Notes under the pieces: model-generated
What the model was told of the DNA's origin: nothing
The model's input: only the letters and a program-made list of their open reading frames with translations
Databases searched by the model: none
Sequence record: MZ234013.1
Reading direction: 5' to 3' (one strand)
Source: Escherichia phage vB_EcoM-101112UKE3-1
Length of the DNA stretch: 64,000 nt
Shown: in pieces, positions 53,727 through 63,073 of the stretch
Layout: every line of letters starts with the position of its first letter
Position numbering within the stretch: the first letter of the stretch is position 1
Program-made: the position numbers and the translations under genes

Positions 53727-54411
<685 letters not shown>

Positions 54412-54423
54412 TTTCACAAAGTT

Positions 54424-54453
54424 GTTTACATACTGATGAGGTAGTGATACTAT
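54424..54453 (+). promoter_or_regulatory. early-type promoter module (TTCACAAAgttGTTTAC -35, 18 bp spacer, TGaTACTAT) with palindrome GAGGTA...TACCTC
   Basis: Near-identical module repeated at 54755 and, in part, at 55053 and 58571. Confidence 0.5.
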
Positions 54454-54484
54454 TACCTCATCAAAATTAATTAGGAAAATAAAA

Positions 54485-54742
54485 ATGAAAACTTTCAAAG
54501 AGTTTGCTACAAAAACTACTATCACTGAATCTTCCCACGGTATGGAAGTAAAGCTTGGAATGGCTTTAGCTGAAGCTGAGCGTCTTTTCTCTCGTATTAA
54601 AGAACTTGCTGCTGCGGTCGATCCTTCATCTTTTAAAGGAGACCAAACTAAAGTTAAAGCACTTTTAGCATTATGCTCCGATGCAGGAGAAATTGCTAAA
54701 AATGGCTCTAAGATGAAGAAACGATTAGAAGATTTAAAATAA
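54485..54742 (+). CDS. small internal-protein-like protein with CTS-like N-terminus (MKTFKEF...ITE)
   Basis: 85 aa; N-terminus resembles the T4 internal protein capsid targeting sequence MKTYQEFIAE; own early promoter. Confidence 0.55.
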   Translation: MKTFKEFATKTTITESSHGMEVKLGMALAEAERLFSRIKELAAAVDPSSFKGDQTKVKALLALCSDAGEIAKNGSKMKKRLEDLK

Positions 54743-54754
54743 TTTCACAAAGTT

Positions 54755-54784
54755 GTTTACATAGGGTTTTAGTTGTGATACTAT
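54755..54784 (+). promoter_or_regulatory. early-type promoter module (second copy)
   Basis: aatttcacaaagttgtttacata identical to the copy at 54411; -10 TGtgATACTAT. Confidence 0.5.
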
Positions 54785-54818
54785 TACCCTATCAAAACAA
54801 AACCAAATGGAAATCAAA

Positions 54819-55052
54819 ATGAAAACTTACCAAGAATTTATTGCTGAAACTGCTGATGTAAAAGTTGAGTTTATTTACACTGGCAAGAAAGATAAAATGG
54901 GTGAAATGCCTCATGGAGTTCTTCGTGATGCATTAGATAATTTCGGTCAACTCGCCGCAGAAGATTACGGTGATAAAATTGTTGTTACTGGTCCTGCTGC
55001 AGTTATTGAAAAATGGGCAGCAGAAAATAAATCAATTTTTCGTAAAAAATAA
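54819..55052 (+). CDS. internal protein with canonical capsid targeting sequence MKTYQEFIAE
   Basis: Exact MKTYQEFIAE leader (gp21 cleavage motif I-A-E); 77 aa from this ATG (track ORF starts 12 nt upstream at 54807). Confidence 0.65.
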   Translation: MKTYQEFIAETADVKVEFIYTGKKDKMGEMPHGVLRDALDNFGQLAAEDYGDKIVVTGPAAVIEKWAAENKSIFRKK

Positions 55053-55082
55053 GTTTACTTTTAGATAGGGTAGTGATACTAT
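55053..55082 (+). promoter_or_regulatory. early-type promoter module with 9-bp perfect inverted repeat flanking the -10 (GATAGGGTAgtgatactatTACCCTATC)
   Basis: GTTTAC, 18 bp spacer, TACTAT; palindrome 55064-55091. Confidence 0.5.
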
Positions 55083-55110
55083 TACCCTATCTACTACTGA
55101 GGAGAATAAA

Positions 55111-56659: not shown

Positions 56660-56746
56660 GGGGAGTTATCCCGTAGAGGTAGCGGTGTGGACTGTAAATC
56701 CATTGTCATTGCGACTCGGGTGGTTCGACTCCATCACTCCCCACCA
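56660..56746 (+). tRNA. tRNA-like gene, anticodon GTA (Tyr-type), class II with long variable arm
   Basis: Acceptor GGGGAGT/ACTCCCC (7 bp), anticodon stem GTGGA/TCCAT with loop cTGTAAa, variable-arm hairpin GTC/GAC, T-arm GGTGG-TTCGACT-CCATC, encoded CCA; D-arm spacing atypical. Confidence 0.5.
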
Positions 56747-56792: not shown

Positions 56793-57458
56793 ATGCATTT
56801 TTATCTTTATAAAATAACAAATAAAATTAATAATAAAATTTATATTGGTGTGCATTCTACCGAAAATTTAGATGATGGATATATGGGTTCTGGTAAATTA
56901 TTAAAAAGAGCCCAAGACAGGTATGGTATAGAAAATTTTTCTAAAGAAATATTAGAATATTTTGATGATAAAGAATCTATGCTTGAAGCCGAGAAAAATA
57001 TTGTTACAGAAGAGTTTTTAAATAGACCAGATGTGTATAATTTAAAACTTGGCGGTGAAGGCGGATGGGATCATATAAATATTCCTGAGATGCTAAATCA
57101 GAAGAAAGACGCTAGTTTAAAAGGAGCTAAATCGTTTAAGTCACGTTTTAAAAATGATATTTTACTTCAAGAAAAATATCGTCAAAATGGTTCAAATGTA
57201 TTTAAACGTTTATGGTCAACTCCTGAATACAAGGAAAAATTTTTAAATAATAGCAGATTTTTAAATAAGCATCATACTCTTGAAACTATTAATAAAATGA
57301 AAGAAATTCACGCTAAAAATAATCACCAGAAAGGTGAAAAGAATTCCCAATTTGGTATGATGTGGATTCATTCATTAGATGAAAAAGTTTCTAAACGTAT
57401 TAAGAAAACTGACCCAATTCCAGAAGGATGGTTTAAAGGTCGAAAAATGAAATTTTAA
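56793..57458 (+). CDS. segB: SegB GIY-YIG homing endonuclease
   Basis: GIY-YIG motif FYLYKITNKINNKIYIGVHST...GYMGSG; start at internal ATG with AAGGA RBS gives 221 aa as in T4 SegB; location inside tRNA cluster as in T4. Confidence 0.8.
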   Translation: MHFYLYKITNKINNKIYIGVHSTENLDDGYMGSGKLLKRAQDRYGIENFSKEILEYFDDKESMLEAEKNIVTEEFLNRPDVYNLKLGGEGGWDHINIPEMLNQKKDASLKGAKSFKSRFKNDILLQEKYRQNGSNVFKRLWSTPEYKEKFLNNSRFLNKHHTLETINKMKEIHAKNNHQKGEKNSQFGMMWIHSLDEKVSKRIKKTDPIPEGWFKGRKMKF

Positions 57459-57463
57459 ATTAC

Positions 57464-57538
57464 GTCCCGCTGGTGTAATGGATAGCATACGATCCTTCTA
57501 AGTTTGCGGTCCTGGTTCGATCCCAGGGCGGGATACCA
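57464..57538 (+). tRNA. tRNA-Arg (anticodon TCT)
   Basis: Acceptor GTCCCGC/GCGGGAT with CCA, T-arm CCTGG-TTCGATC-CCAGG, anticodon loop cTTCTAa. Confidence 0.7.
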
Positions 57539-57882
57539 AATGAGAAACCGGGTCGCTACCGGTAAGTCGTCGGACTGATGTTCCCTGTTTAAGGACTGGC
57601 ATTAATAAATCTTTATGTTTTGTTAATGCCCCCTTATATCACAGCAGAAACGGCGCACCGAATTATCGATTCGAGGAAATATCTTTGCCATAAGCCGAGT
57701 AGCGTTTTTGACGGAACGTTCGGATATGGTCGAGATATGGCCTTTTAAAAATATTGAGTAGCGTCAACTGCTTAATAACCGGGTTCGAATCCCGGCGTTT
57801 CGTACAAACACTTGCCTTAGCAGGTGGAACCCCGACAAGGTTGCCGCAAGGCTTAGCCCCGACCGAAAGGTTGGGGCTTTTT
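57539..57882 (+). ncRNA. candidate stable small RNA(s) (T4 rnaC/rnaD-like region) ending in a terminator
   Basis: About 340 nt without a plausible ORF, containing hairpins (ggcattaa...ttaatgcc) and a tRNA-like T-arm CCGGGTTCGAATCCCGG; exact RNA ends not determinable by eye. Confidence 0.45.
57855..57882 (+). terminator. rho-independent terminator (agccccgaccgaaaggttggggct + TTTT)
   Basis: 10-bp stem, GAAA loop, T-run. Confidence 0.7.
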
Positions 57883-57928
57883 AGTATAAATAAGTATATT
57901 AAAACCCCGAATTAAAACAGGAAATAAG

Positions 57929-58402
57929 ATGAAATCATATACTCAATTTTTAAATGAAGCGGTGTTAAATGAAGCATCTAGCACTGAAATTCAAGCTGTT
58001 GCAAAAGCTGCCATTGCCGCGGGTAAATATTCCTATAAAGATGCTTCCGATGAATCACGATTCCAATTTGCTCGTGATATGAAAGCCGAAGGATTTACAG
58101 GGAATGCAGTTAGTATGGCTTGGAAAAGTTTAGTTGCTACTGGAGCTGCTTTTGCAAAGGCTTCAGGTAAACCTGCTCCTAAAGCAGATCCTAAAGTCAC
58201 ACAAGAGAAAAATATTGTTAAAGGAATTATCTCCAAATATGAAGCTATCCTTAAAGAGCTTTTAGTAATCAAAACTGAAGGCCAAAAGCTAGCTCGTGCT
58301 TATAGTTTCAAAGATAACCCACATGTTCACTCTCTTGAGTATGTTGAAGACATCCAAAAAATTATTAAAGACCGCATTTGGTCTGCTAAACAAATCAAAT
58401 AA
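57929..58402 (+). CDS. hypothetical protein with CTS-like N-terminus (MKSYTQFLNEA), possible internal protein
   Basis: 157 aa; N-terminus fits MK[TS]Y..F[IL].E pattern of T4 internal proteins; Ala/Lys-rich. Confidence 0.55.
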   Translation: MKSYTQFLNEAVLNEASSTEIQAVAKAAIAAGKYSYKDASDESRFQFARDMKAEGFTGNAVSMAWKSLVATGAAFAKASGKPAPKADPKVTQEKNIVKGIISKYEAILKELLVIKTEGQKLARAYSFKDNPHVHSLEYVEDIQKIIKDRIWSAKQIK

Positions 58403-58409
58403 CATTCTT

Positions 58410-58437
58410 AGCCCCGACCAAAAGGTTGGGGCTTTTT
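58410..58437 (+). terminator. rho-independent terminator (agccccgaccaaaaggttggggct + TTTTT), near-identical to the one at 57855
   Basis: Same stem sequence as the 57855 terminator with a 1-nt loop difference. Confidence 0.7.
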
Positions 58438-58570
58438 GGTATCTAGGCCTTTCCGGGCCTCTCTAGACATCATTTAGTTTCTACCCTTTATAATATATTA
58501 TCCTATCTTTTAATTGCCCCTCCCTGCCCTAGAATTCCCTAAAACTTTTTAAAAATTTTTTCACAAAACT

Positions 58571-58600
58571 GTTTACATCCCTGTTCTTCCATGGTACTAT
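58571..58600 (+). promoter_or_regulatory. early-type promoter (TTCACAAAactGTTTAC, 18 bp spacer, TGgTACTAT)
   Basis: Shares the TTCACAAA...GTTTACAT upstream box with the promoters at 54424 and 54755. Confidence 0.5.
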
Positions 58601-58630
58601 ACAACTATCAACTACTGATACAAAAACAAC

Positions 58631-58906
58631 TTGGAGAATGAAATGGATAATTACGGCGAACTGTTCAACTTCTTTATGAAATGTGTTTCAGAAGATTTCG
58701 GTCGTACAGTGAATGATATTAAAGTTATCGGTCCTGACCATCCGATGTTTGAAACCTATGCAGTAATGGGTAATGAAGATGGTCAGTGGTATACTGTAAA
58801 GGTTGTGATTAACATGTTCACTGCTGAAGGTTATGTTAAACTGTCTTCTAAAGTTTACCATGATAACGATGAAATCGCAGAAGAATATTTCAATAATATG
58901 AAATAA
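58631..58906 (+). CDS. hypothetical protein (91 aa)
   Basis: GGAGAA RBS; preceded by early-type promoter. Confidence 0.5.
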   Translation: MENEMDNYGELFNFFMKCVSEDFGRTVNDIKVIGPDHPMFETYAVMGNEDGQWYTVKVVINMFTAEGYVKLSSKVYHDNDEIAEEYFNNMK

Positions 58907-58975: not shown

Positions 58976-59152
58976 ATGACTACTTTAATTATTTGGTTCG
59001 ACGAAAATGAAGAAACATACTGCGTGAACATTGGCGAAAGCCCAATGCCAGAATTTGAATCTTCGGATAAAAACTCGGTTGTATCTTGGGCTGAAGGTTA
59101 TAAAGCAGCAAAAGGCGATGTTGAAATAGTTTACAAACTATCCGGAGTATAA
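58976..59152 (+). CDS. small hypothetical protein (58 aa; not in the supplied ORF track)
   Basis: ATG with GGAGAA RBS (aaaacggagaaataaATG); frame traced by hand. Confidence 0.4.
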   Translation: MTTLIIWFDENEETYCVNIGESPMPEFESSDKNSVVSWAEGYKAAKGDVEIVYKLSGV

Positions 59153-62066: not shown

Positions 62067-62597
<531 letters not shown>

Positions 62598-62601
62598 AGT
62601 T

Positions 62602-62631
62602 GTTTACTTTCTCCTAGAATTGTGATAGTAT
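62602..62631 (+). promoter_or_regulatory. early-type promoter (GTTTAC, 18 bp spacer, TGtgATAGTAT) upstream of denV
   Basis: Same architecture as the other early-type promoters in the window. Confidence 0.5.
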
Positions 62632-62656
62632 ATTCACAGTTACTTGGAGGGATAAA

Positions 62657-63073
62657 ATGACTCGTATTAATTTGACTTTAGTATCTGAACTTGCTGATCA
62701 ACATTTAATCGCAGAATACCGTGAATTGCCGCGTGTTTTTGGTATAGTTCGTAAGCATGTGGCAAACGGTAAGCGCGTTAAAGATTTTAAAATATCTTCT
62801 AAATTTATTTTAGGTTCTGGTCATGTTACTTTCTTTTACGATAAGTTAGAATTTTTGCGAAAGCGTCAATCGGACATTATAACGGAATGCTTAAAACGCG
62901 GGTTCAGTATAAAAGATACTGAAGTTCCTGACATCAGCGATATTCCAGTAGAATGGAAAAATGATTATAATCCATGTAAATCAGCTATTAAGTTGAGTCA
63001 ACAACGACTCGATGAAAAAATTTTAATGAAGCCACACTGGTATAAGTATTACGGCAAAAATATTTACATTTAA
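62657..63073 (+). CDS. denV: endonuclease V (pyrimidine dimer DNA glycosylase)
   Basis: 138 aa; [26 protein letters not shown] as in T4 DenV; GGAGG RBS. Confidence 0.9.

Follow-up and report, generated by a model that had tools for sequence, protein, structure and literature searches.

The gene at positions 57929 to 58402 of the phage DNA examined here is best explained as part of a self-contained late-gene cassette that encodes an unnamed T4-type internal head protein, which would be packaged and injected; we put the probability of this reading at roughly three in four. The window, as the term is used throughout, is a 64,000-nucleotide stretch of Escherichia phage vB_EcoM-101112UKE3-1 (sequence record MZ234013.1), numbered from its first letter. 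On the best reading of the evidence, the family of the 157-aa product is an unnamed internal-protein (Ip) family at a third Ip locus, between rnaC and e.8. A known class would gain a member in this way, with no new mechanism involved.

The window derives from a Tequatrovirus, i.e., a T4-like phage, with 96% identity to UPWr_E4 and 94% to both RB32 and RB33. Gene order on its + strand is that of T4, read along the direction of early transcription. The relevant features are as follows.

57B (Acb1 family), +, upstream of the two Ip genes
54485-54742, +, Ip5-type gene
54819-55052, +, Ip6-type gene
tRNA.4, tRNA.3, and tRNA.2, +, after the Ip genes, followed by eight tRNAs, segB, and tRNA-Arg
57464-57538, +, tRNA-Arg, upstream of the rnaD and rnaC homologues
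~57540-57658, +, rnaD homologue (approximate coordinates transferred from T4)
~57665-57803, +, rnaC homologue (approximate coordinates transferred from T4)
57852-57887, +, copy 1 of a repeat, an intrinsic terminator (stem-loop 57855-57878, GAAA loop, T-run)
57885-57892, +, T4-type late promoter core TATAAATA, 44 nt before the ATG and right after the copy 1 T-run
57919-57922, +, Shine-Dalgarno motif AGGA, 6 nt before the ATG, read from the sequence
57929-58402, +, coding sequence of the 157-aa precursor (phrog_2280), an ORF beginning MKSYTQFLNEAVLNEASS, between the rnaC homologue and e.8
57929-57973, +, predicted propeptide MKSYTQFLNE/AVLNE/A (codons 1-15), comprising a capsid targeting sequence (CTS, residues 1-10) and two L-N-E/A sites
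58407-58442, +, copy 2 of the repeat, an intrinsic terminator (stem-loop 58410-58433, AAAA loop, T-run)
58572-58600, +, sigma-70-type early promoter TTTACA-17-TACTAT with TG, for e.8 (58643-58906)
e.8 to e.3, then nudE, e, and denV, downstream of the 157-aa ORF

The initial annotation, made from the letters and a list of ORFs, had placed this ORF after the stable RNAs. Alignment to T4 bears this out: window positions 57452-57887 match the T4 tRNA-Arg/rnaD/rnaC/terminator stretch at 95%, so that homologues of tRNA-Arg, rnaD, and rnaC precede the ORF. A search of Rfam returned no family covering the rnaD and rnaC homologues (57540-57803).

ORF 57929-58402 is a real gene under purifying selection. 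Its dN/dS ratio is 0.08 to 0.13 across five relatives (dS 0.06 to 1.8), a homologue is present in 511 phage records, and all nine loci of an alignment share the ribosome site AGGAAA. Frameshifts occur in two phages, fPS-65 (at a run of A) and SfPhi01, and the gene can therefore be considered dispensable, as Ip genes are. In fPS-65 the frameshift lies at positions 1780-1800 of locus L005 (GAAAAAAAAATAT, compared with GAGAAAAATATTG in the window), and in both phages the product is shortened to 111 to 112 aa. The run of A may be a slippage hotspot.

The first line of evidence for packaging is the leader. For IPIII of T4 (leader MKTYQEFIAE), the first 10 residues are sufficient for packaging, with residues 4 and 7 mattering most for targeting and residues 8 and 10 for processing (PMC9026906). 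The leader of the 157-aa protein, MKSYTQFLNE, retains Y4, F7, L8, and E10, the functional residues mapped in T4. To gauge specificity, all ATG starts followed by at least 40 codons were collected from the six frames of the 64-kb window; the pattern MK[ST][YF]..F[IL].E was matched by 2 of these 567 starts, namely, those of ORF 57929-58402 and the Ip6-type gene at 54819. The match is not due to chance, and the original description of the N terminus as an MK[TS]Y..F[IL].E sequence with an L-x-E cleavage site is upheld at the level of the sequence motif. A looser form of the CTS pattern also picked out a 76-aa protein (13963-13733, - strand) that starts MLLEFKQFLYEAS, which we rejected as a CTS protein. 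It belongs to phrog_1143 ("DNA helicase"), is encoded beside uvsW, and has a leader that resembles a CTS shifted by one residue; no late promoter was found upstream of its gene. We take this protein to be T4 uvsW.1, and its resemblance to a CTS is probably a matter of chance.

The gp21-type motif occurs twice in the leader, as L8-N-E10/A and L13-N-E15/A. Across 21 aligned family sequences, which share as little as 21% identity, just four columns do not vary (M1, F7, E15, and P82), and A16 is nearly constant. Because E15 is invariant and A16 almost invariant, the conserved gp21 cleavage would most likely take place at L-x-E15/A16. Judging from the repeated letters (FLNEA-VLNEA), the E10 site looks like a five-residue duplication.

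These conserved positions bear on a different explanation of the leader, in which the gene encodes a late protein that is not packaged and the leader is a relic of recombination that spread a promoter-RBS-leader module, with no role in targeting. In its favor, conserved leaders and regulatory repeats do allow Ip loci to exchange segments; most annotators recognized nothing in the 157-aa protein; and the virion proteome discussed below is contaminated, such that detection there could be carry-over. A relic would be expected to decay, yet F7 and E15-A16 are among the few invariant positions in proteins whose remaining sequence falls to ~21% identity, and the residues retained are exactly the functional ones mapped in T4. 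We consider a nontargeting leader very improbable.

Alignment with T4 IPIII had been proposed as a check on membership among the internal proteins, and the outcome was divided: similarity was recovered at residues 1 to 10 and none was recovered in the mature region. Specifically, hhalign against IPIII (phrog_5341) aligned residues 1 to 10 only, BLASTP gave E > 2, and the two proteins fall into different PHROGs. Since internal proteins share only the leader, likeness to IPIII confined to this segment is normal. Homology to T4 IPIII, Ip4, or other named Ips was rejected, as nothing beyond the 10-residue leader is shared. Ip4 is also 157 aa long, by coincidence.

The predicted mature protein comprises 142 to 147 aa, with a pI of 9.5 to 9.6, 20 Lys residues, and a net charge of +7 to +8; it is small, basic, and lysine-rich, as Ips are. 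In an AlphaFold2 model (mean pLDDT of 80.9), the leader is disordered, residues 18-71 form a three-helix N-domain, residues 75-87 a Pro/Ala/Lys linker, and residues 88-154 a helical C-domain. Model confidence is low for residues 1 to 15, consistent with disorder. Fold searches with the predicted model gave no informative match, Pfam and NCBIfam held no significant family for the protein, and a profile search of PDB sequences returned nothing below an E value of 0.03.

Evidence from virions comes from Yersinia phage fD1, purified particles of which were analyzed by LC-MS/MS by Skurnik and colleagues (PMC8309999). The product of fD1 g140 (67942-68415, 157 aa, 17.3 kDa), which is 98.7% identical to the 157-aa protein, was classed as a particle-associated protein (PPAP) at the strict threshold; Table S3 of that study gives e112_137 as its best match and records no similar protein in T4 (PMC8309999). 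The strict-threshold list is unspecific, in that it contains 113 of the 277 phage proteins (41%) along with 672 host proteins, DenV, lysozyme, and NudE being among those listed (PMC8309999). Given this lack of specificity, the detection only roughly doubles the odds of packaging and is no proof of it. The search was fully tryptic and no cleaved N terminus was reported (PMC8309999); a processed N terminus is not visible in such data, owing to the fully tryptic search. A second proteome, that of phage SH7, was too shallow to serve as virion evidence, and the paper on the fPS phages contains none.

The fD1 data also bear on whether a targeted protein would remain in the head. Conceivably, the product is a CTS-targeted accessory of the prohead core that is broken down by gp21 and expelled like the scaffold protein gp22, being neither retained nor injected. 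An internal L-K-E at residues 108 to 110, where further cleavage is possible, constitutes a third L-x-E site and lies in a long helix, and late-only expression fits the timing of a scaffold. On the other hand, at least two peptides were found in mature fD1 virions at the strict threshold, the site at 108 to 110 is not conserved in distant members, and, in contrast to genes for core components of the scaffold, this one can be dispensed with and often carries frameshifts. Expulsion of this kind appears unlikely to us.

The late promoter is conserved. ATAAATA is invariant across nine divergent loci aligned with a mean column identity of 68%, and Klebsiella phage Mineola (Jiaodavirus) has the same order of tRNA cluster, terminator, TATAAATA, and gene. 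In the fPS-65 record, another group independently annotated a "predicted late promoter" at the same position. The late promoter and the two hairpins together define a predicted monocistronic late unit, in which one and the same hairpin serves as upstream insulator and as downstream terminator. In contrast to the 157-aa gene, for which the only promoter is a late one, the Ip genes at the ipI site of the window are preceded by repeats of an early-type promoter and have no TATAAATA in their vicinity.

The initial annotation had suggested a third packaged internal protein. The retained CTS, the conserved motif, the late promoter, the basic mature protein, and the fD1 orthologue found by virion mass spectrometry all point to such a protein. 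Counting against a packaged Ip are the lack of a functional clue from the fold and a mature part that resembles no known Ip, the late-only promoter in a phage whose Ip genes have early-type ones, the near-universal label of hypothetical protein, the L-K-E at 108 to 110, and the dispensability of the gene.

The boundaries of the cassette are two near-identical terminators, each a hairpin with a 10-bp stem, a tetraloop, and a T-run. Predicted folding energies are -20.3 kcal/mol for copy 1 (z score of -3.9) and -19.5 kcal/mol for copy 2 (z score of -4.5), relative to shuffled controls. With their flanks, they form a direct repeat of 36 nt, 34 of which are identical, with the copies placed 555 nt apart. 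Copy 1 ends the tRNA/rnaC transcription unit and forms the left cassette boundary; copy 2 ends the monocistronic late transcript and forms the right one. Allowing up to 3 mismatches, a 30-nt terminator pattern was found at only these two sites in the 64 kb (0 expected by chance), and in the compared loci of relatives it is present only at the same locus. The pattern being confined to this locus in both the window and its relatives, it does not represent a general consensus terminator, an explanation that had been named as one that would refute the idea of a duplicated boundary.

Comparison with T4, which lacks the 157-aa gene, places the recombination junction in the repeat. Two blocks of the window, 57452-57887 and 58408-58906, align to T4 and overlap there by 35 bp, corresponding exactly to the terminator. 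The single T4 terminator is a chimera that takes its left flank and GAAA loop from copy 1 and its right flank from copy 2. Phages T2 and PST likewise have a single chimeric terminator and no gene. The earlier description of a duplicated cassette boundary is thus supported, and the check proposed with it, whether the repeat marks recombination junctions in relatives, came out in its favor: T4, T2, and PST have one collapsed, chimeric copy where the window has terminator, gene, and terminator. In the RB32 record, annotators of the orthologue (RB32ORF133c) already noted a 34-bp imperfect direct repeat as its flanks. More-divergent relatives keep flanking repeats with lineage-specific sequence; in locus L012, for instance, AGGCCCTTCCGAAAGGTTGGGCC occurs twice (31/31).

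As to the direction of change, the gene was probably lost from T4, T2, and PST through recombination between the two terminators. Because family members are found at one and the same position across several genera, the ancestral state was probably presence, with repeated gain less likely. The duplication could instead reflect the recent arrival of a mobile cassette in a T4-like ancestor, a reading that concerns direction only. Near-identity of the copies within a genome (34/36 here, 31/31 in L012) would fit insertion, as would the variation of the terminator sequence by lineage, which is expected where cassettes bring in or convert boundaries of their own; gene conversion, however, can also keep copies alike. 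Moreover, the gene occupies the same place in Tequatrovirus, in Mosigvirus-like loci, and in Mineola, after the tRNA/stable-RNA terminator and before e.8/e.6, and related paralogues occur in Dhakavirus-type, Serratia, Enterobacter, and Yersinia phages, so that ancestral presence with repeated loss is more parsimonious. We regard a recent insertion as possible, though doubtful.

The arrangement recalls the PeSL (promoter-early stem-loop) cassettes of T4-type phages described by Arbiol et al. in 2010 (PMC2839356) and Comeau et al. in 2014 (PMC4122927). As in those cassettes, a nonessential ORF lies between two stem-loops, a relative has a single chimeric copy (PMC2839356), and the crossover falls inside the stem-loop region. 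Unlike in PeSLs, the repeated unit here is the terminator stem-loop and T-run alone, and a late promoter follows copy 1. No sigma-70 early promoter was found within 57852-57887 or 58407-58442; the nearest lies ~140 nt past copy 2. This is the e.8 promoter (58572-58600), which lies outside the terminator repeat and is common to the window and T4. PeSL membership was rejected because no early promoter is present inside the repeat. The case shows that cassettes subject to gain and loss can also be bounded by a terminator repeat that lacks such a promoter.

The 157-aa protein is assigned to phrog_2280, labelled "unknown function". For the named Ips, the corresponding PHROGs carry the label of internal head or virion protein. 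This family comprises 157-, 187-, and ~205-aa paralogues from several Tevenvirinae genera. In an exhaustive profile search of 1.8 billion representatives, only 26 clusters were retrieved, apparently all from T4-like phages, and tBLASTN located family members in phages of Escherichia, Shigella, Yersinia, Salmonella, Citrobacter, Klebsiella, Enterobacter, and Serratia. Among members whose mature parts drop to ~21% identity, a CTS-like N terminus is retained, the pattern x-[YF]-x-[EQD]-F-[LI]-x-E opening almost all of the full-length sequences. Examples of such leaders are MKTYAEFLTEA, MKTYNEFLNES, MYTFNEFLAET, MLKFKEFISEA, MKFKEFLAEA, MINFSDFLNEG, MLKFNEFLAEG, MITFNEFLNESEMINEAG, MINFSDFLNEGA, and MNFKEFLKEEALNEA. 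A single UniRef entry, a 177-aa member from a Klebsiella phage, carries the name "Internal head protein"; all other database names read for the family are hypothetical.

The 187-aa proteins (fPS-65 g135c, Shfl2p135, and RB14ORF136) and the ~205-aa proteins of the IME281 and IME08 group (MKTYNEFLNESVLNEAG...) share PHROG, locus, and leader with the 157-aa protein and are full-length matches to phrog_2280. They also share its architecture of a helical N-domain, a Pro/Ala/Lys linker, and a helical C-domain. They differ in being only 21 to 30% identical to it, in a linker that reaches ~40 residues in the 205-aa form, and, for the 187-aa gene, in having no exact TATAAATA upstream. We rejected the idea that the ~205-aa protein is swapped cargo behind a shared leader, as it is a distant paralogue from the same PHROG. 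In some phages, the 187-aa paralogue, which bears a CTS (MKTYAEFLTEA), is encoded in tandem with the 157-aa gene. This second cassette lies directly 3' of the 157-aa gene in fPS-65 (positions 1974-2710 of L005) and also in loci L008, L009, and L015; its product begins MKTYAEFLTEAAK... and is encoded in 165 phage records. The second cassette ends at a third, different terminator, the 3' flank of which matches that of copy 2 in the window.

In comparison with the T4 Ips, the 157-aa protein is likewise small and basic, with a leader of the form M-K-[TS]-[YF]-x-[EQ]-F-[IL]-x-E ending in a gp21-type L/I-x-E site, and likewise has a mature part unrelated to that of every other Ip. Ip genes and the 157-aa gene alike are nonessential, are present in some phages only, and sit in a variable region as repeat-flanked cassettes. 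There are also differences, in that the 157-aa protein has a double L-N-E/A site, unlike the named Ips, and its family extends across several genera, far wider than theirs. Two Ip loci are given in a 2025 description (PMC12373910), and a polymorphic series, Ip4 to Ip9, was described for T-even phages by Repoila et al. in 1994 (as cited in PMC3012670 and PMC12373910). The 157-aa gene lies at neither the ipI site (57B-tRNA.4) nor the ipII/ipIII site (e-denV) but at a third, rnaC-e.8. The functional claim is not weakened by this location, which is descriptive rather than mechanistic.

Both established sites can be located in the window. The ipI site (54396-55099) holds two CTS genes, an Ip5-type (MKTFKEF...ITE/S) and an Ip6-type (MKTYQEFIAE/T), each preceded by a 71-nt repeat with an early-type promoter (GTTTACA...GATACTAT). 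Three copies of this repeat are present (54396, 54727, and 55025), together with a partial fourth at 62596, before denV. At the second site, e (62103-62597) is followed directly by denV (62657-63073), such that the ipII/ipIII/Ip4 site is empty in this phage; between the two genes (62597-62657), the early-promoter-like repeat alone remains. Elsewhere, the e-denV site holds ipIII and ipII (T4), Ip4 (RB32), or ipIII and ipIV (PST). With this site empty, the 157-aa protein would be the only large CTS protein of the phage.

We infer the targeting, cleavage position, retention, injection, and target of the 157-aa protein as follows. Late in infection, gp55-modified RNA polymerase would start a few bases after TATAAATA, near 57899, and produce a monocistronic mRNA of ~0.53 kb ending at the downstream terminator (58410-58437), with the copy 1 terminator insulating the gene from tRNA/rnaC transcription. 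The CTS (Y4 and F7) would carry the 17.3-kDa precursor into the assembling prohead core, and the prohead protease gp21 would cut the leader at L-N-E/A after E15 and possibly also after E10. The resulting N-terminal peptides would be ASSTEIQAVAK for a cut after E15, AVLNEASSTEIQAVAK for a cut after E10, and SYTQFLNEAVLNEASSTEIQAVAK for an intact leader. The basic, lysine-rich, all-helical, two-domain protein of ~15.5 kDa would then stay in the head with the DNA and be injected with it at the next infection, most likely as a premade protective factor. Homologous recombination between the terminator copies would delete or transfer the cassette.

The three T4 proteins Ip1, Ip2, and Ip3 are injected inhibitors, each directed at a different variant of the GmrSD Type IV restriction enzymes (PMC12373910). 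By analogy, the injected protein may inhibit a host nuclease, e.g., a GmrSD-type Type IV restriction enzyme, and an anti-restriction role is our leading guess. Neutralization of DNA charge through the lysine-rich linker (PMC3012670) is a possible alternative role.

A broader proposal, which we advance only tentatively, is that phrog_2280 is the oldest and most widespread Ip family of the Tevenvirinae, comprising late-made, head-packaged, and injected effectors with tandem paralogues that track host-defense variants and with late, PeSL-like boundaries. If this were true, the family would have been kept at the third Ip locus in phages of Escherichia, Shigella, Yersinia, Klebsiella, Enterobacter, and Serratia; its tandem paralogues would track host-defense variants as Ip1 to Ip3 track GmrSD variants; and the terminator and late-promoter boundaries would be a late-gene counterpart of PeSLs, by which genes are lost, regained, and duplicated. 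A third Ip locus would supply ready candidate anti-defense effectors and would explain some of the host-range differences among near-identical Tequatroviruses. The CTS-bearing family occurs in >500 sequenced phages, many of them therapy candidates, in which it is "hypothetical" almost everywhere. The value of the present analysis lies in a concrete candidate effector family and an example of a terminator-bounded late cassette.

Several minor observations concern the surrounding region. The position of T4 e.7 is a further replaceable slot, occupied by a 58-aa ORF (58976-59152, phrog_5461) in the window and by another ORF, of 172 aa, in RB32. A ninth tRNA, tRNA-Tyr (GTA), which T4 lacks, lies at 56660-56746, between tRNA-Met/Ile(CAT) and segB. 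The longest segB ORF (GTG start at 56685) overlaps this tRNA, and the true segB start must therefore be further downstream. Finally, 57B (53953-54411) matches the Pfam family Acb1, an anti-CBASS 2H phosphodiesterase, with an E value of 2.7e-60; an anti-defense gene thus adjoins the internal-protein site.
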